From sequence record MN158208.1: 46,736 bases of DNA. One strand, written 5' to 3'. Under the pieces are notes generated by a model, which made no database searches, was not told the origin of the DNA, and was given only the letters and a program-made list of their open reading frames with translations. Positions 25,961 to 43,241 of the stretch are shown here, piece by piece. Origin of the DNA: Escherichia phage BEK6. A program made the translations under genes and the position numbers. Position 1 is the stretch's first letter. Every line of letters starts with the position of its first letter.

Positions 25961-26365
25961 ATGCACATAATTACTGGTCAGATTCGCCGCGCTCCATTCA
26001 CCAAAGAAGGCGTAAACGCCAATGGTAACTGGAAAATGTTCGCAGTTGATTTGAGTGAGCGCTACAAAGATAAAGATGGTCAATCACAGTACACAAATTA
26101 TCGTGCCGTCTTCTTCGCTAAAGAATCTATGTTAGATTGGTACAATGATGCATTTCAAGAAGGTAAAGTTGTTAGTGTTAGCGCTGAAAGCTTGGCTGTA
26201 GATGTTAGGGATAAAGATGGTAAGACTTACGTAACCATTAACATGAATAATCCTCGGCTTGAGTTTAGTCAGCGAGGTGAGAGTGGAGGTCAACAACAAC
26301 AGCAACAGCGTCAACAGCCACAGCCACAGCAGCAACAGCAGTTCAATGACGACATTCCATTCTAA
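25961..26365 (+). CDS. ssb: single-stranded DNA-binding protein
   Basis: OB-fold-like N-terminal domain, Gly/Gln-rich linker and canonical acidic tail ...FNDDIPF. Confidence 0.8.
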   Translation: MHIITGQIRRAPFTKEGVNANGNWKMFAVDLSERYKDKDGQSQYTNYRAVFFAKESMLDWYNDAFQEGKVVSVSAESLAVDVRDKDGKTYVTINMNNPRLEFSQRGESGGQQQQQQRQQPQPQQQQQFNDDIPF

Positions 26366-29000: not shown

Positions 29001-29924
29001 TTAGTCTAGTAATTCGCTTGCCTTGTATATCCTCTTCCTTATGCCTGACTTAAAAAATTTATCATCATTTGGCATTACCACATCAAGATTGCGATCGTCA
29101 GCAACGGCGAGTAAATCAAAATCGTGGCGAGCACAAGCGACGCGTAACTTGTAGTTTCTAAGCGCGTAAGCAACCATTTCCATGTTGTAGCTGGAGTAGC
29201 AAACAAACACGCAGCGGTTGCCAGTAGCAATATGAACGCGAACACCATCAATCCAATTATCGACCAGATAAGCGTACTCATCACTTTTAAAGGCACCAAT
29301 AACAGCAATAGACTGGCGAGTGTAATCTTTTGCAGCATAACTAACATCTCCCTCTTCATTAATAAACATTACATTGCACATCTCATCGGACAATCCATCA
29401 CTATAGGCCATAAAACAAGGCACTGCGTGTATTAGTTCTCCTGATTTTGTCCTGCCGACATCAAAACCAAACTCGCTATAGATACCCTCGTATATACTTA
29501 GTGGAGTTGATTCTACTCTTTCCGTCCTTTCCATTATCTCTAAGCATCTTTCGTGGTCAATCTGAGCGCCCATTTTGTACAGCTGAGTCCTTGATGCTTG
29601 CTTGTTTGCCTTATTAACCACTTCTACAGGGATAAGGTTTAACCACTCACCGAGAACATCGACACATTCACTGAATGACTCCCCTCGCATCTTCTGAACC
29701 CAGACAATTCCATCTCCTGAGCCACACTGGTTGCAGATAATGCCACCATCACCTTCTTCGCTAACCTTGTTGGTCCATCGTGCTCGGTCTTTTCCTCCAC
29801 AATAAATACATGGCTGATGCTTTTTGGTCTGGAAGAATTTTGGGTCTGCGCCGCAAATGTTTATAAGCGCCTTATCCCACAGTCCGCGCATTCTTGGTAG
29901 AACCTCTTTCTTATCGTAGTGCAT
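29001..29924 (-). CDS. putative DNA primase (zinc-ribbon containing)
   Basis: CIYCGG...CNQCGSG paired CxxC zinc-ribbon near the N-terminus; divergent from the helicase gene; strong terminator downstream on the minus strand. Confidence 0.45.
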   Translation of the reverse strand: MHYDKKEVLPRMRGLWDKALINICGADPKFFQTKKHQPCIYCGGKDRARWTNKVSEEGDGGIICNQCGSGDGIVWVQKMRGESFSECVDVLGEWLNLIPVEVVNKANKQASRTQLYKMGAQIDHERCLEIMERTERVESTPLSIYEGIYSEFGFDVGRTKSGELIHAVPCFMAYSDGLSDEMCNVMFINEEGDVSYAAKDYTRQSIAVIGAFKSDEYAYLVDNWIDGVRVHIATGNRCVFVCYSSYNMEMVAYALRNYKLRVACARHDFDLLAVADDRNLDVVMPNDDKFFKSGIRKRIYKASELLD

Positions 29925-29982: not shown

Positions 29983-30456
29983 TTACTCTTTAGCTTTTCG
30001 TGCTGCTTCGTTAGCGGCCTTAATTTTGCGCCAGGAGCGACACTCCGGCTTGGTGGCTAACTCAGCCTCAGTAACCACACGCAGCATGTGGCGTTTTTTG
30101 CATCGTAGAGTTAGCGGCTTTCCGTTGCCATCGAATTGTAGATCTGGTCGGCAGAATGTAGCTCGAAAACCTTCTCCGGTTCGTTTGTAGTAGTTGTGCG
30201 ACAACTGAGCGCCACGCGCAGAAATCATACCACGCTTAAACCATTCTTCTACAGCCTGTGGTGTTACCTTTAACTGCTTTGCGATATTAGCCTTTGTGCC
30301 AAAGAAATCAAGGAGCATCTCAAGACGTGCTCGTAGCCCGGCCCTTACTTCATCTTTTAAAACGTAGTAACCTGAGGGTCGTTTTCGCTGTTTTTTGTCT
30401 TCAGTGCGGACTGTTCCGTTGTTGCCGTTAATGGTTCGCTTGTCTACTTCATTCAT
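29983..30456 (-). CDS. putative HTH DNA-binding protein
   Basis: 157-aa basic protein with helix-turn-helix-like segment GTKANIAKQLKVTPQAVEEWFKRG; first gene of the minus-strand primase operon. Confidence 0.4.
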   Translation of the reverse strand: MNEVDKRTINGNNGTVRTEDKKQRKRPSGYYVLKDEVRAGLRARLEMLLDFFGTKANIAKQLKVTPQAVEEWFKRGMISARGAQLSHNYYKRTGEGFRATFCRPDLQFDGNGKPLTLRCKKRHMLRVVTEAELATKPECRSWRKIKAANEAARKAKE

Positions 30457-38099: not shown

Positions 38100-38119
38100 T
38101 TTAACAAAAAGTGCTATTT
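38100..38119 (-). promoter_or_regulatory. palindrome copy (AAATAGCACTTTTTGTTAAA on minus strand)
   Basis: Overlaps stop of gene 38118-38453; followed by terminator hairpin AGCCCATTATGGGCT and CATCGAAACGAG leader. Confidence 0.45.
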
Positions 38120-38453
38120 AAGAAAAAAGATCGTCATCCGTCATGTTGCATATGTTCATCATATCCTTAATATATTTACTTTCATAACCGTTAAGTGCCT
38201 CGAAGCTGAAATTAAATGGCCTCCTCAGGCTACCCTTGCTAACAAACTTACCGCACTTACCATCAATGTATCCAGCACTCAACATCTTTGCGCAGAACTC
38301 CTTTGAAGCAGCGCTGCAAAACTCTCTATGCGATAACCCTGCCGCCTTGCTAAATCTCTTAGAATCCTTATGTTGGTAGATGAATCGCGCCAAATGCTGG
38401 CGCGTGAAAAAGCTATAAGATTCGCAAAAACGATACATATCCAAAATGAACAC
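38118..38453 (-). CDS. hypothetical protein
   Basis: 111-aa ORF immediately downstream of the 527-aa gene (GTG start in track; internal ATG 38438 possible). Confidence 0.4.
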   Translation of the reverse strand: MFILDMYRFCESYSFFTRQHLARFIYQHKDSKRFSKAAGLSHREFCSAASKEFCAKMLSAGYIDGKCGKFVSKGSLRRPFNFSFEALNGYESKYIKDMMNICNMTDDDLFS

Positions 38454-38456
38454 TTA

Positions 38457-40040
38457 TCACCCCAGCAGTCGTGGATTAATGTAAACTTTATCACCAATCA
38501 GGCACGTGTAGTTTTTCTCATCAAGCATTGGCAGCAAGTGGTCTTTAATCTTCGTCATTACTCCCGCTTGAGCCTCGAACGGCTTAACCTTGCGAGCCGC
38601 TTCATATAGCGAACGAATACCTACTACTCCTTTCCCGTTTTTGCCTTGCTTAATCAGGATATCAATCAGCTTATTCATCTCTGCATTGTCGCCAGCGTGA
38701 CCCGCGGCGTTAGCGGATGACAGATAAGTTTTGCTCAACTCCTGGAACATAATTACAGCTTCCTGCATTGTATCAAGCTCAATTTCTCTCGACTTCTGAG
38801 GGCTACCGCCATTTGGGTTGAACCAGTTACGCACAGTGTGAAGGACAGCCGCAATCCTTATTGCCTGCTTATCAAACTTACCAAGCGCGCCGCGCAACAT
38901 TGTGTGTGAATACTTGCCGCCGTCCGCAAGGTGAGGTTCCATTTCCTGACGCGCACGGTTGAGATACTTCATTGCTGAGTTACTAACCGTTAGTTTTACA
39001 TCCTGCTCATTCATGATTTCATGAACAAGACGGAAGTAATCAGCCTTCAACCCTGCATCAATTGGTTCATAAGTCGATTCGCCATTTTCATCAACGAATA
39101 CACGCTCGCCCAGGAATGACTTTTCACGTACAAGCAGGAAACGCTCAGATACACCGATACCACGCGCGCCAGCGTTCATGATAGCGTTGATTGTCTCATC
39201 CTGCGCAATTACAGAGATGCAACCCATAGCGACGAAGCTCATGTTGTTTTCAGCGTTAGCACGAGCGATAGATACGTTGCCAGCATCCCATGCCTTCAGT
39301 ACCAGTTCGCTGTTCGTTTTCTTTGATCCGTCACCATAGGTCATGCCAAGTAGTGAGTTTACACTCGTTGCCTCATCCGAGATTACTGCAAAGTTACCCT
39401 GACGATTGTTTATTCGCGCAAGACCTTCCGGTGTGGTATCTGAAACCGGGAAAACGATATCGCATAGTTTCTCGAGTTTTTCCTCCAACTCCTCTTTCTC
39501 CTCGAAAAGAGAAGCCATCTCTGACGGGGATTTTTCCTGCTTCATCTCTTTGGATAACGCAGATAGTTTAGCCATAATCTTTTTGCGCTCACGCTTTCGC
39601 ACTTCATTCAGTCGAGCAGTTTCAGCAATCATCGGAGCAATTGAAAGTGAGTTGATTGCTGATTTACCAGTCGATGGTGGCTGGCTTGTTACAACATAAA
39701 GCGAAGTCGGTTGCTGCGTTCCGTGATACTCAACAGTAAAACGGCCTAGCATCGCAGCGGAAATACACCCAAGGAAGTGCATGTAAGCTGAAGACTCGGG
39801 GAACTGAACTGAGCGAGCAATATTAGCTGACAGTTTACCAACAACATCAATGTCATTGCCGAGTGAGATCACGGGATACTTGTCATTAGCCGCATCAATC
39901 TCCACCGGTGCTTTCCAGAATGATTGAGACTGGCGATAGCCATTGGCATTAATAGCGACGCGCAGGGGTGGGAGGTTGTCTGCGGCAGCAATTGCCATAA
40001 CCTGTTCAACAGATAGTTTATCTTCGTTGAAATCAAACAT
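38457..40040 (-). CDS. P-loop NTPase-like protein (Walker A/B-like motifs), function unknown
   Basis: 527 aa; Walker A-like QPPSTGKS and Walker B-like FAVISDEAT in the central region; N- and C-terminal segments shared with the 175-aa ORF at 42714-43241. Confidence 0.5.
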   Translation of the reverse strand: MFDFNEDKLSVEQVMAIAAADNLPPLRVAINANGYRQSQSFWKAPVEIDAANDKYPVISLGNDIDVVGKLSANIARSVQFPESSAYMHFLGCISAAMLGRFTVEYHGTQQPTSLYVVTSQPPSTGKSAINSLSIAPMIAETARLNEVRKRERKKIMAKLSALSKEMKQEKSPSEMASLFEEKEELEEKLEKLCDIVFPVSDTTPEGLARINNRQGNFAVISDEATSVNSLLGMTYGDGSKKTNSELVLKAWDAGNVSIARANAENNMSFVAMGCISVIAQDETINAIMNAGARGIGVSERFLLVREKSFLGERVFVDENGESTYEPIDAGLKADYFRLVHEIMNEQDVKLTVSNSAMKYLNRARQEMEPHLADGGKYSHTMLRGALGKFDKQAIRIAAVLHTVRNWFNPNGGSPQKSREIELDTMQEAVIMFQELSKTYLSSANAAGHAGDNAEMNKLIDILIKQGKNGKGVVGIRSLYEAARKVKPFEAQAGVMTKIKDHLLPMLDEKNYTCLIGDKVYINPRLLG

Positions 40041-40097
40041 TACTTCTCTCCGTATTGTTTCTGAGCGGCCATTATATCAACGACCGCTTATAATTCA

Positions 40098-40117
40098 TTA
40101 TCAATTTGTGCTATTAG
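40098..40117 (-). promoter_or_regulatory. palindrome copy (CTAATAGCACAAATTGATAA on minus strand) upstream of the 527-aa gene
   Basis: Minus-strand TATAAT (forward 40071-40076) exactly 22 bp after TTGATA; overlaps the 3' end of micro-ORF 40114-40230. Confidence 0.45.
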
Positions 40118-40230
40118 TTGTTCTTAATCCACTTTAGACACATCCACAATCCAGCTCCATAGAATGCAATCTTAATAACTTCAACTAAGACAAGGATAAT
40201 AAGGTATCCACCACCAAGTAAATCAATCAT
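40114..40230 (-). CDS. hypothetical hydrophobic micro-protein
   Basis: 38-aa ORF (MIDLLGGGYLIILVLVEVIKIAFYGAGLWMCLKWIKNN) with ATGA overlap to the upstream gene; predicted single TM helix. Confidence 0.3.
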   Translation of the reverse strand: MIDLLGGGYLIILVLVEVIKIAFYGAGLWMCLKWIKNN

Positions 40231-40466
40231 TTTTTAATCTCCATTTCCACAACTTCATAACTTATGTAATTATTTATCATTCCAATAAGTGATTTTGGGT
40301 ATGTTTTCATATGCTTCTTGGCTGAATCTTCATCAAGATGCGCTGATATGTTGTGAAAATTGTATTCATAATCCATGCCCATTAGTATGTATATCTTATC
40401 GTGCGCATTAATGAAGTTATTTGATTTTAATCCCCCAATAGACCAGCCTTTTCCTTTTCTAATCAT
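40227..40466 (-). CDS. hypothetical protein
   Basis: 79-aa ORF starting at ATG 40466 (ATGA overlap with upstream stop); track ORF extends to 40499. Confidence 0.4.
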   Translation of the reverse strand: MIRKGKGWSIGGLKSNNFINAHDKIYILMGMDYEYNFHNISAHLDEDSAKKHMKTYPKSLIGMINNYISYEVVEMEIKK

Positions 40467-40816
40467 TTGTATTGAGCCTCGAAATGGTAAGTCTGGCAAA
40501 GAGTGTAAAATCCAACATCCTCGCTACGGTAGAGCTGCCAGGCATTACCATCTTCGTCGTAAATGTATCCGGCATTTTGCCCAAGGCCTGCATGCATGGA
40601 TACCTGGTAACGTTTCTCTTCTTTAAAGTCTTTTTTAACTCCGGATTTGTGGTTAACTTTCGTGCAATACAGAGTTTTGGTCTTGATATACTTACCGCGC
40701 TCTTCCAGGTTAACCCATTTCCCATCTTTCTTGATTTGTTCTACACCATCTTTAACGCGAGCTTTGTATAGTACGTTTTCGTTGCTAATCCAGTTTTTGG
40801 TAATCGTAGTAGTCAT
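40463..40816 (-). CDS. hypothetical lysine-rich protein
   Basis: 117-aa ORF starting at ATG 40816, downstream of palindrome/TATATT/CTCATCGAAACGAAAC module; track start 40861 would include the leader. Confidence 0.45.
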   Translation of the reverse strand: MTTTITKNWISNENVLYKARVKDGVEQIKKDGKWVNLEERGKYIKTKTLYCTKVNHKSGVKKDFKEEKRYQVSMHAGLGQNAGYIYDEDGNAWQLYRSEDVGFYTLCQTYHFEAQYK

Positions 40817-40878
40817 TTCTTTTGCCCTTCGTTGTTTCGTTTCGATGAGGTTAATATACATGAAAAGCCCCGAAGGAC

Positions 40879-40898
40879 TTTAGCAATTAGTGCTATTT
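40879..40898 (-). promoter_or_regulatory. gene-boundary palindrome copy (AAATAGCACTAATTGCTAAA on minus strand)
   Basis: Encodes the C-terminus/stop of ORF 40880-41041; minus-strand TATATT (forward 40853-40858) 22 bp downstream; CTCATCGAAACGAAAC leader. Confidence 0.5.
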
Positions 40899-41041
40899 CG
40901 TGCTTTTTCTATCGCCTTGAGCATAATTTCATGGCTCTCTAGCAAGTCCTCGCGAAACCAATCGCCGCAAGGCCAGCCCTTACCAGACATCTTTGACACA
41001 ACTTCAAAATCCCAATAACTCAAATCTGAAGGTAATAGCAT
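40880..41041 (-). CDS. hypothetical small protein
   Basis: 53-aa ORF, ATGA-type overlap with upstream gene; C-terminal residues NSTNC and stop codon are encoded by the palindrome itself. Confidence 0.3.
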   Translation of the reverse strand: MLLPSDLSYWDFEVVSKMSGKGWPCGDWFREDLLESHEIMLKAIEKARNSTNC

Positions 41042-41280
41042 CATTTCACCTCATCAAAAGTTGCAATCCCAGGAATAAACATCCCAACCTTCCAGCCAGC
41101 AATCGCAATCCAGCCAGAATCGTGCTTGTGCGGTCGCTCAGCGCCATTAATCAACCACTCGTTCGGGATTGTCTTCCCGTTAATGATTAGCGGCTCAGCT
41201 TCGTATACAGAGCCTTTTACGAATGGTGTTAATACTTTCTTGTCGGTGCTGGTGATACAGTTAGTGCAGCGAATTTTCAT
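41041..41280 (-). CDS. hypothetical protein
   Basis: 79-aa ORF with GAGG RBS, second gene of the minus operon from 41470. Confidence 0.4.
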   Translation of the reverse strand: MKIRCTNCITSTDKKVLTPFVKGSVYEAEPLIINGKTIPNEWLINGAERPHKHDSGWIAIAGWKVGMFIPGIATFDEVK

Positions 41281-41290
41281 ATCTCAATCC

Positions 41291-41470
41291 TCAAATAAAT
41301 GGTAGGCATTCGGCGCATCCAAGTCCATCACAGCACAGGAATTCATCCTCTGACTGGAATTGCTTAGCCAAGTCGATGTCCAGCTTTCCGCGCAACACAA
41401 GTTCTGTGTAATCTTCATTAAGCCCAATCAGTGCGCATTCGTGACGTAATTCATCTTTATCAATCTTCAT
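41291..41470 (-). CDS. hypothetical Cys-rich small protein
   Basis: 59-aa ORF (ends ...CCDGLGCAECLPFI) with GGGGAG RBS, preceded by palindrome/TATAGT/CTCATCAACAACGG module; below the track cutoff. Confidence 0.35.
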   Translation of the reverse strand: MKIDKDELRHECALIGLNEDYTELVLRGKLDIDLAKQFQSEDEFLCCDGLGCAECLPFI

Positions 41471-41524
41471 ACCAATCTCCCCGTTGTTGATGAGCTAACT
41501 ATAGCCTGGCCATCCACACATGTC

Positions 41525-41544
41525 TTTAGCAAAAAGTGCTATTC
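41525..41544 (-). promoter_or_regulatory. palindrome copy (AATAGCACTTTTTGCTAAA on minus strand)
   Basis: Minus-strand TATAGT (forward 41498-41503) about 23 bp downstream; first gene of the minus operon starts at 41470. Confidence 0.45.
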
Positions 41545-41827
41545 GTCAGATTTATGGATTGTTGCAGATATTGCAATGATTCACATGACTATTGCACATA
41601 CAGCAATATTGCTTCAGATGCAATGATGTTTTTGATTGTTGCGAAAAGTGAAATGAAGTGGGGAGTGAGTGAATGAAAGATTGATGGACTGCCATACAAG
41701 TTGACTTTACCACTCGATGAGCACCTCACGGATATACGCGTATCCTAAGTATACTCAGTGTCGTCACAAAAGTTAGTGACCACTAACCTACGTTTTTACG
41801 CGAGATATACACACGATATACAATATA

Positions 41828-41896
41828 ATATCTATATATATCAACCTTTTACTTTATTATTATTATTATTATTATATATATGTATACTGTGTATAC
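41828..41896. repeat. AT-rich repeat element with (TTA)n tract, copy B
   Basis: ATATCTATATATATCAACCTTTTACTTTATTATTATTATTATTATTATATATATGTATACTGTGTATACC; same orientation as copy A. Confidence 0.7.
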
Positions 41897-42102
41897 CGAT
41901 CATTGGTGAGATAGTTGATATGTTCCGCGCAGATATTCTGACACTTGTAGGAAAGGGATGACATTGTAGGAATGGATAGGCATGCATGGGGCCTGGTGGG
42001 TAAAAAAAGTGTATACACGGCGTACGCGCAATATACATATAGAGATGATGCGGTGCTAGAGGCAGATTTGCGTATTAGGTGAAAAATATACAAAGAAATA
42101 CT

Positions 42103-42131
42103 TTGACTAACGCGTAAATCTGATGCAATAT
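42103..42131 (+). promoter_or_regulatory. candidate sigma70-type promoter for the 42172 gene cluster
   Basis: TTGACT (42103-42108), 17-bp spacer, CAATAT (42126-42131). Confidence 0.35.
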
Positions 42132-42171
42132 ACCAATCAATGAAACGCAGTACACAACAACGAGGTGACAT

Positions 42172-42714
42172 ATGAATGAAGTAACGCTTGGTGAAGTAAT
42201 CAGGAATATGGTAAGTAAAGCCATGGAGTCCAGCAGTGGTGAGTTTAAGGTTCCTGTAAGGGAAATATTCAAGGTGCTTAGAGGTCGGGATTATCCTGAG
42301 CTCAGGTATGATGTTGAAACTGATGAGATCATCAACCTTAAGGAGCGGTCGATTCCAGAATTGAAGAACTCATACATTTATAATACGGTATCAAGGATGC
42401 CGCAGTTAAGAGCTGCAGGAAAGCATGCTAAGCACAAGATAATCTGGATTGATGATGATGGTGAGCAGACGAGCGCAAAGCAATTCGACGGTGACGGTGC
42501 AGATAAGTATCTTGTAATCCAGATCTGCGATGGTGAACATAAGAAGAGCGAGAGCGCCAGGAGGAAGAGAGATAGCGATGCTGCTGTTATTGAGTCATTC
42601 AAGTCAAGATTAATGAAGGTAGTACCGAGCGTTATGGACTTAGATGGTGAGCAGAAGGTTGGCGCAGAGATTGCTATCGGTAGATTTTATGATTTGATTA
42701 AGGATGCTAAATAA
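42172..42714 (+). CDS. hypothetical protein
   Basis: 180-aa ORF, first plus-strand gene after the 41.5-42.2 kb control region; candidate TTGACT-17-CAATAT promoter upstream. Confidence 0.45.
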   Translation: MNEVTLGEVIRNMVSKAMESSSGEFKVPVREIFKVLRGRDYPELRYDVETDEIINLKERSIPELKNSYIYNTVSRMPQLRAAGKHAKHKIIWIDDDGEQTSAKQFDGDGADKYLVIQICDGEHKKSESARRKRDSDAAVIESFKSRLMKVVPSVMDLDGEQKVGAEIAIGRFYDLIKDAK

Positions 42715-43241
42715 TGTTTGATTTCAACGAAGACAAATTGACTGATGAACAGATTATGAGCATTGCGAAGCAGGATGGAATTCCACCGCTACGGATTGCA
42801 ATCAATGCAAATGGTTATAGGCATGTTCAGCACCTCTGGGGCCAGCCTGACGCATCGGAAGTCTACAGAGATGAAGCGCTGGGAGTTATGATTAAGTTGA
42901 TCAGGAAAATGGCAAGGAACGGCAAGGGCGTGCTTGGCATCAGGTCTTTATACGATGGCGCTCGCAGGGGGAAAAGAATTAATGGTGGCAATGCCGTGCT
43001 GATGGCTCGCATTAAGGATGAGCTCATCCCCGCTCTAGAGGAAATGAATCTCGTTTGCCTAATTGGAGATAAGATTTATGTTCATCCGGCTATCATTGAT
43101 GAGTATTGGCAACCAAACTTCAAAACTTACGAAGGTGAGCACGCTAGTAGACCACCATACCACTTGCGGTACAGCGAGGAAGAGGTGGAGGTGGCGATTG
43201 AGTTCTACCGGAAAGCTAAATCACTCCTGAATGGTGAATAG
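42714..43241 (+). CDS. truncated paralog of the 527-aa NTPase-like protein (N- and C-terminal segments only)
   Basis: Starts MFDFNEDKLTDEQIMSIA...PPLRIAINANGYR and contains NGKGVLGIRSLYDGAR...IKDELIPALEEMNLVCLIGDKIYVHP, matching both ends of the minus-strand 527-aa protein; first 20 nt identical. Confidence 0.5.
   Translation: MFDFNEDKLTDEQIMSIAKQDGIPPLRIAINANGYRHVQHLWGQPDASEVYRDEALGVMIKLIRKMARNGKGVLGIRSLYDGARRGKRINGGNAVLMARIKDELIPALEEMNLVCLIGDKIYVHPAIIDEYWQPNFKTYEGEHASRPPYHLRYSEEEVEVAIEFYRKAKSLLNGE

Follow-up and report, generated by a model that had tools for sequence, protein, structure and literature searches.

A fast-evolving paralog of the MCM-like helicase of T1-like phages that joins the two terminal modules of the helicase to a tail of its own

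The genome of Escherichia phage BEK6 (MN158208.1; 46,736 nt, here called the window in its entirety) encodes, on opposite strands, a 527-aa and a 175-aa protein, which are very probably an MCM-like helicase and its paralog, the latter derived by one internal deletion and extended by a gained tail. Both open reading frames (ORFs) were found at the positions and on the strands (Table 1) at which an earlier note, made from the letters of this DNA alone, had placed them, and the similarity between their ends described there is real. In pairwise BLASTP comparisons, residues 1-73 of the helicase align with residues 1-69 of the small protein, hereafter the mini-paralog, at 51% identity (N block; E 6e-21), and residues 458-526 align with residues 59-128 at 49% identity (C block; E 3e-20). 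BLASTP aligns nothing of the helicase core (about 390 aa) between both blocks, and the mini-paralog contains no Walker motifs and has no Pfam match; the NTPase core is thus missing from it, as had been claimed. The N-terminal modules of the two proteins (residues 1-45) are 67% identical at the amino acid level, and across genomes the first 42-48 residues of the mini-paralogs are 64-79% identical to the helicase. The nucleotide identity amounts to 64% in the N block and 54% in the C block, with identical third codon positions in 21 of 45 and 16 of 69 cases, respectively, the latter being a random value. As third positions are near random, the similarity must have been kept by selection at the protein level and the duplication is old, which agrees with the view of the earlier note that it was not a recent one. 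The first 20 nt, reported there to be identical in both genes, are so in the window and in one relative only; in other genomes just 5-11 nt are shared, and the identical start therefore does not represent a nucleotide-level element. Gene conversion or concerted evolution was considered as the source of this identity and rejected, owing to the short prefix in most genomes and to the fact that the mini-paralogs are equally near to the helicases of their own and of other genomes (nucleotide identity 0.58-0.70 throughout). No third copy of either module was found within the window.

The 527-aa protein is a replicative helicase of the DUF3987 family, which belongs to helicase superfamily 6 (SF6). 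It matches Pfam DUF3987 (PF13148) with 142.9 bits against a gathering cutoff of 27 (residues 81-430) and PHROG 2373, annotated as 'DNA helicase', with an E value of 1e-258. The Walker A motif (QPPSTGKS, residues 120-127) and the Walker B motif (FAVISDEAT, residues 217-225) are those that had been recognized before; K126 and E223 are invariant in all of 102 diverse helicase homologs, Q120, P121, G125 and S127 are each conserved in at least 90% of them, and W42 in the N-terminal module is kept in 92. The predicted model shows an MCM-type AAA+ fold, with RavA and BchI ranking lower among the matches, and neither single-sequence nor profile searches identified a solved-structure relative. The last approximately 75 residues match, on their own, the winged helix (WH) domains of ORC, Cdc6, kleisins and MCM8, and are predicted to form helices at residues 451-467, 475-482 and 494-508 and strands at 472-474, 512-515 and 518-521. 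At the opposite end of the protein, residues 1-4 are modelled with a predicted local distance difference test score (pLDDT) below 50, and residues 11-30 with a score of 95. DUF3987 proteins have been described as divergent SF6 (MCM-like) helicases with a winged helix-turn-helix domain at the C-terminus and were proposed to be replicative helicases of phages (PMC4889955); for AgaPH, which belongs to the family, oligomerisation, ATP-dependent helicase activity and binding to its primase-polymerase have been described (PMC11724360). The 527-aa protein shares the Pfam domain, the Walker residues, the AAA+ fold and the WH with this class (AgaPH; Kazlauskas et al. 2016), and hexamerisation and unwinding, which are known from the homolog AgaPH only, may be expected for it by analogy. 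The mini-paralog, lacking the ATPase core, is no helicase and has in common with this class only the WH and a lineage-specific N-terminal module. The statement of the earlier note that no known replication factor could be recognized thus has to be given up for the large protein.

The DUF3987 helicase family comprises 2642 representatives, some of which have a length of 800-970 aa and contain this module as their C-terminal half. The helicase itself was found in 906 phage records; in about 129 of them its identity to that of the window is at least 90%, and identities in the remaining records are 57-80% or approximately 37%. Its sequence is highly constrained: between the window and its relatives L001-L018, 91-99% of the amino acids are identical, while synonymous divergence per site runs from 0.4 substitutions to more than 2. 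As a side observation, this helicase is also carried by 21 'Campylobacter phage' records (L024; MG065636, MG065688 and others), and four sampled helicases from this set are approximately 71% identical to that of the window. One of these records, A16a, is marked UNVERIFIED and classified as Drexlerviridae, Hanrivervirus, and the Campylobacter host label looks doubtful.

The mini-paralog consists of the N-terminal helices of the helicase, its WH and a conserved tail of about 45 aa. Along its entire length it matches the functionally unannotated family PHROG 7327 (E 8.1e-73; residues 1-175 against positions 1-179 of a 179-position profile), and 323 relatives were found in databases, the best 120 of which are all 160-182 aa long and are in many cases encoded on contigs of 40-50 kb. 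Sequence searches revealed no solved-structure relatives of the mini-paralog. Its predicted model (pLDDT 82.5; predicted template modelling score 0.67) begins with four residues of pLDDT below 50, followed by three short helices (residues 11-41; pLDDT about 92 for residues 11-40), a variable linker, a canonical WH (residues 55-123), a linker of low confidence (about residues 140-150) and a last helix at residues 155-172. Residues 55-128 show the helix-strand-helix-helix-strand-strand topology of winged helices and match structurally the WH domains of ORC, Cdc6, kleisins and MCM8. The independently computed model of a 140-aa homolog from phage DTL in the database BFVD superposes on the mini-paralog with a template modelling score of 0.92 (2.1 A over 141 columns); N-terminal helices and WH are thus consistently predicted as one compact unit, which suggests that in the complete helicase, too, the two termini may come together as one unit. 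The mini-paralog does keep the termini of the helicase, as the earlier note had stated, but not these alone: residues 129-175 match neither the helicase nor any other part of the window and constitute a separate conserved tail. This tail (residues 143-175) is the most conserved segment of the mini-paralog, with a mean pairwise identity within the family of 0.79, compared to 0.72 for the N-terminal module (residues 1-45), 0.66 for the WH (residues 59-128) and 0.58 for the linker between them (residues 46-58); mini-paralogs of the L009/P0227 type carry a different tail in place of the common one. The mini-paralog family was not found in the literature on DUF3987, DUF7174, Drexlerviridae replication, MCM-like phage helicases and anti-defence, and nothing in the papers searched ties PHROG 7327 to helicase termini. 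The helicase is of a known kind, and the family of the mini-paralog existed without annotation.

Full-length mini-paralogs are present in 106 phage records, and in all mini-paralog-bearing genomes examined the helicase is at least 91% identical to that of the window. No mini-paralog was detected in Webervirus mtp10 and Hanrivervirus A16a even with the helicase termini of these phages as queries, nor was DUF7174, the family encoded directly upstream of the mini-paralog in the window. We calculated neighbour-joining trees, including nine mini-paralogs, for the N-terminal module, the WH and both combined. In these trees the mini-paralogs are placed beside the helicases of their own clade, within the helicase tree of the Drexlerviridae, and in the module trees they branch off after the helicases of Tlsvirus, Webervirus and Tunavirus had split off; their branches are long and those of the helicases very short. 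The combined tree shows a clade of eight of the nine mini-paralogs (bootstrap support 87), the ninth (L009) standing beside the helicases, and all nine are grouped in the N-module tree only, with weak support (25). The module trees indicate that the mini-paralog arose once, when a duplicated helicase gene lost an internal part in the ancestor of those Drexlerviridae that share helicases of at least 90% identity. As the mini-paralog of the L009/P0227 type aligns to the helicase from residue 436, about codons 46-435, comprising N-linker, ATPase and lid, were probably lost in frame in the ancestral event; an in-frame domain deletion is among the interpretations offered by the earlier note, which are in part supported. 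Several candidates for independent mini-paralogs outside this clade were considered and rejected: P0243 (97 aa) is a contig-edge fragment, a helicase annotated in split form seems to account for the small matches in Salmonella phage 36, and P0122 (451 aa) and P0157 (395 aa), listed as 'helicases' in databases, are scrambled chimeric helicase sequences with duplicated and reordered segments. The latter two are most likely assembly or annotation artefacts and no natural variants; P0122 may be identical to the 451-aa 'Helicase' that BFVD lists for Shigella phage 2019SD1.

For the same pairs of genomes, the number of synonymous substitutions per site (dS) is alike for helicase and mini-paralog, reaching more than 2 in the latter. 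Nonsynonymous substitutions per site (dN) range from 0.008 to 0.065 for the helicase (dN/dS 0.01-0.04) and from 0.08 to 0.55 for the mini-paralog (dN/dS 0.13-0.30). Both genes are therefore under purifying selection, and the mini-paralog changes roughly ten times faster. There was no co-variation or gene conversion between the mini-paralog and the helicase of the same genome. These selection data contradict the idea that the mini-paralog is the dead remnant of a partly deleted helicase duplicate. Although individual copies are indeed decayed or deleted (see below), the large number of homologs, of uniform length among the best 120, the persistence of purifying selection over such synonymous distances, the conserved coupling to the upstream gene, the confidently predicted fold and the gain of a new conserved tail render this explanation extremely unlikely.

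Natural isolates show that the gene can be lost. In Veterinaerplatzvirus T145P1 (L025), whose helicase is 98% identical and whose DUF7174 gene is intact, codons 1 to about 143 of the mini-paralog are cleanly deleted; the last 32 codons are left directly past the stop codons of DUF7174 (positions 40841-40936 of that genome) without an ATG, and this remnant holds a 25-codon ORF starting with TTG only. The mini-paralog of L012, like that of IME542 in BFVD, contains a stop codon and a frameshift. In the vB_EcoS-12210I group an in-frame TGA is found at codon 141 (L004, 9001-9531), and in L005 (8671-9195) an in-frame TAG at codon 142. Both stops lie in the linker before the tail and leave a 140-aa protein comprising N-terminal helices and WH, and the tail codons past them stay conserved, readthrough into the tail being possible. 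At synonymous sites, the tail of L005 lies far nearer to that of the window (proportion of synonymous differences 0.10) than does the remainder of the gene (dS 1.1), pointing to a joint formed by recombination at about codon 141. Deletion, truncation and decay in natural isolates mark the gene of the mini-paralog as accessory and rule out an obligatory role in loading the helicase.

With respect to its function, we tentatively favour the reading that the mini-paralog shares a ligand with the helicase termini and modulates the loading of the helicase or the firing of origins. It would be made early, coupled to DUF7174, from an operon diverging from that of the helicase, and would keep both ligand surfaces of the helicase, i.e. 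the near-invariant peptide and the helices at the N-terminus, and the WH, which is basic. Devoid of the motor, it could bind the ligand of the helicase without being able to hydrolyse ATP or to unwind DNA. Candidate ligands are origin (ori) or operator DNA nearby, another component of the replisome, for example the primase, or the ring of the helicase itself; by competing for such a ligand or bridging it, the mini-paralog might adjust helicase loading or origin firing, and the tail may add a second contact, turning the mini-paralog into an adaptor. Its role would thus be that of a non-essential modulator rather than a required loader. We infer a shared ligand above all from the N-terminal module, which remains helicase-like despite saturated synonymous sites and thereby argues that the ligand is still the same; the peptide MFDFNEDKL, near-invariant and poorly modelled, looks like a shared docking motif. 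In addition, the WH is basic in both proteins (pI 9.3 in the helicase and 10.0 in the mini-paralog). A precedent is provided by SaPI Rep, a self-loading helicase of the MCM group encoded by Staphylococcus aureus pathogenicity islands, whose C-terminal WH reads iterons flanking an AT-rich core (PMC9371898) and which makes an initiator role for the WH of the T1-type helicase plausible by analogy. Repeats and an AT-rich tract in a comparable arrangement are conserved between the two operons of the window (see below).

Several observations weigh against this proposal. The WH of the mini-paralog is variable, with identities within the family falling to 34% and exposed, putative recognition-helix positions being affected as well, whereas the helicase WH is almost invariant; this is hard to square with recognition of the same DNA sites. 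Deletion, truncation and pseudogenes demonstrate that any role in replication is dispensable, and dispensability together with a fast rate fits a role in host interaction or anti-defence equally well. The short repeats beside the AT-rich tract described below vary from one sub-clade to another although the helicase stays the same, and are therefore probably no helicase iterons. Finally, a partner of the mini-paralog, its DNA site, the contacts between N-terminal helices and WH and an interface between helicase and mini-paralog are all hypothetical elements of this proposal.

Truncated forms of initiators and helicases that regulate replication are known from other systems, for example HSV-1 OBPC (UL8.5), the C-terminal DNA-binding part of UL9, papillomavirus E8^E2, Merkel cell polyomavirus 57kT and the short forms of R6K pi. 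Like the mini-paralog, proteins of the OBPC/E8^E2 type keep the ligand-binding ends and have lost the enzymatic core, and the full-length protein is encoded alongside. They are, however, produced from the same gene by an internal start or splicing and are identical in sequence to the full-length protein, whereas the mini-paralog is a separate gene on the opposite strand that is approximately 50% identical, has saturated synonymous sites and its own tail, and evolves about ten times faster. An inhibition of replication of the OBPC/E8^E2 kind by the mini-paralog is conceivable. Archaeal WhiP/Cdt1-like WH proteins and eukaryotic MCM-BP, which are small or core-less relatives of replication ATPases, influence how MCM is loaded or unloaded via WH or terminal contacts. 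They show no sequence kinship to the mini-paralog and come from another domain of life, so that the analogy is functional only.

The fast evolution of the mini-paralog could alternatively mean that it has ceased to affect the replication of the phage itself and has become an accessory early protein, in which the scaffold of N-terminal helices and WH is aimed at a host or defence target and the tail serves as effector or binding peptide. The tenfold higher rate of amino acid change at equal dS, the repeated loss, truncation and decay in nature and the position in a group of small early genes that evolve fast, with coupling to DUF7174, which evolves still faster, agree with such a neofunctionalisation, as does the family-specific tail, which is the best conserved segment and has been swapped in some lineages. 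It is less easily reconciled with an N-terminal module that has stayed as helicase-like as described above, including a peptide with no obvious folding role, nor did database and literature searches provide a link: the mini-paralog, DUF7174 and the 111-aa protein encoded next to the helicase have no match in PADLOC-DB, which contains defence proteins and no anti-defence proteins, and these three and the helicase have none in NCBIfam. Overall, we consider this explanation rather unlikely. A related possibility is that the mini-paralog is a molecular decoy that mimics the helicase termini and soaks up a host factor or immune sensor attacking them. A decoy would pay for a helicase so constrained that it hardly escapes by mutation, and the accessory status and patchy distribution of the mini-paralog fit; moreover, bacterial STAND sensors have been reported to recognize phage replicative proteins, though in this case a RecA-type primase-helicase of a family other than DUF3987 (bioRxiv 10.64898/2026.01.04.697583). 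A decoy should track its model, yet the WH of the mini-paralog is only about 45-60% identical to the helicase WH and neither co-variation nor gene conversion is seen; no sensor of DUF3987 helicases is known, and the additional conserved tail is left unexplained. This makes a decoy improbable on its own. The broader notion that a virulent phage keeps a headless copy of its helicase with an effector tail, and that this copy either acts on loading or firing, or shields the invariant helicase from a host factor, is possible, albeit on balance doubtful.

The mini-paralog is the second gene of a rightward early operon, the helicase being part of a leftward one. Its ATG overlaps the stop codon of the DUF7174 gene by 1 nt in the window and in phage JeanPiccard, an arrangement by which the mini-paralog is, judged from the sequence, translationally coupled to DUF7174. 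The latter accompanies the mini-paralog in all relatives examined that carry one and is missing in the Webervirus and Hanrivervirus genomes without mini-paralog; it diverges faster than the mini-paralog (28-60% identity), is not mentioned in the searched literature and has no solved-structure relative. The two operons are separated by an intergenic region of approximately 700 bp with a conserved layout. It contains a non-coding block of about 180 bp (41525-41705) with approximately 90% nucleotide identity where the proteins encoded by the flanking genes are only 30-60% identical. Within this block there are three to four TTGC-N7-GCAA palindromes with a fixed 30/17-bp spacing (41562-41576, 41592-41606 and 41609-41623 in the window); three of the six matches to this pattern in the window fall within 62 bp, and the cluster is kept in relatives. 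The block has no Rfam family at threshold and shows nothing unusual in RNA folding (z -1.2 and -0.6), and is therefore probably a DNA-level element, i.e. operators or an origin, with an array for a dimeric DNA-binding protein. An invariant AT-rich tract of the (TTA)n/(TA)n type follows, which is flanked by inverted repeats of the TATAC/GTATAC type (41795-41900 and 42005-42045). The inverted GTATAC repeats after the AT-rich tract occur in the window and its closest relatives, and short TAC(A/G)C-type repeats vary between sub-clades; in L002, L005, L008 and L012 the repeats left of the tract are of the TTTACGC/GTTACA type while the helicase is unchanged. The type of short repeat seems to track the adjacent DUF7174 gene and not the helicase.

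This setting also bears on the view that the mini-paralog is a transcription regulator of the early operons, in which the WH was kept as an operator binder and the likeness to the helicase is mere ancestry. A basic WH and a gene that adjoins the conserved palindrome array and divergent promoter-like sites are what one would expect of such a regulator. The array is, however, about 90% conserved while the mini-paralogs are 42-80% identical, and it is also present in T145P1, which lacks the mini-paralog; the WH is matched best by domains of ORC, Cdc6 and kleisins, which are WH domains of the protein-interaction kind; and another predicted regulator is encoded at 29983-30456. A regulator of this kind is thus quite improbable. 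Compared with the self-loading initiators SaPI Rep/PriRep5 and Cch of SCCmec (staphylococcal cassette chromosome mec), a possible likeness of the region at 41470-42171 to a SaPI ori lies in the conserved (TTA)n tract, the inverted TATAC-type repeats and the palindrome array, with repeats varying by sub-clade; this candidate region is located approximately 1.4 kb upstream of the helicase gene, whereas those of the staphylococcal elements lie immediately downstream. A stand-alone WH paralog is not known to us for SaPIs or SCCmec, although no search aimed at it was made.

Table 1. Coordinates of the helicase gene, the mini-paralog gene, their modules and neighbouring features in the window
Feature	Position	Strand	Evidence
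Gene of MCM-like (DUF3987, SF6) AAA+ replicative helicase, 527 aa	38457..40040	-	
Helicase N-terminal module, residues 1-45: peptide MFDFNEDKL, helices 11-21 and 25-33, W42	39906..40040	-	
AAA+ ATPase core, residues 81-430 (Pfam DUF3987 envelope)	38751..39800	-	
Helicase C-terminal winged helix (WH), residues 451-527, pI 9.3	38460..38690	-	
Mini-paralog gene, 175 aa, PHROG 7327	42714..43241	+	ORF, full-length PHROG match
Mini-paralog N-terminal module, residues 1-45, homologous to helicase residues 1-45	42714..42848	+	
Mini-paralog WH, residues 55-128, homologous to helicase residues 451-527, pI 10.0	42876..43097	+	
Mini-paralog-specific C-terminal tail, residues 143-175, helix 155-172	43140..43238	+	
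DUF7174 / PHROG 4841 gene	42172..42714	+	
Intergenic region between divergent early operons, candidate operator or ori	41470..42171	n/a	

The window represents the genome of a T1-like siphovirus of the Drexlerviridae, whose nearest relatives, at approximately 86-89% nucleotide identity, are BEK2/3, Veterinaerplatzvirus, the BASEL phage JeanPiccard and vB_EcoS-12210I. It carries the T1-type set of a RecE-like exonuclease, Erf, a single-stranded DNA-binding protein (25961-26365), a primase (29001-29924) and an SF2 helicase, and no DNA polymerase gene was found in it. In JeanPiccard (Bas02), the mini-paralog is gene 0063. A gene for a 111-aa protein of unknown function (PHROG 2794; 38118-38453, minus strand) begins 3 nt past the stop codon of the helicase gene. 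As a small gene keeps the equivalent position in Tlsvirus U136B, Tunavirus SH6 and Webervirus phage 13 (L019-L021), the 111-aa protein is a candidate for a conserved partner of the helicase.

T1-like phages are common laboratory contaminants, model phages in the BASEL collection and candidates for phage therapy. To our knowledge, the start of replication in these phages is poorly understood, with no polymerase and no identified initiator or origin, and neither we nor the papers searched know of another gene-encoded, independently evolving paralog of the terminal modules of a phage replicative helicase. The mini-paralog isolates exactly these modules of the helicase and thereby marks them as a functional unit, and it represents a natural probe, acting in trans, for the ligand of the terminal modules, be it ori DNA, primase or a host factor. 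Natural isolates with and without mini-paralog whose helicases are 98% identical offer a genetic handle on the start of replication in T1-like phages. If the mini-paralog is indeed a regulator or a decoy, the principle of truncated initiators known from eukaryotic viruses and plasmids would extend to a separate, fast-evolving phage gene, and a function would be assigned to PHROG 7327 and perhaps also to its partner DUF7174.

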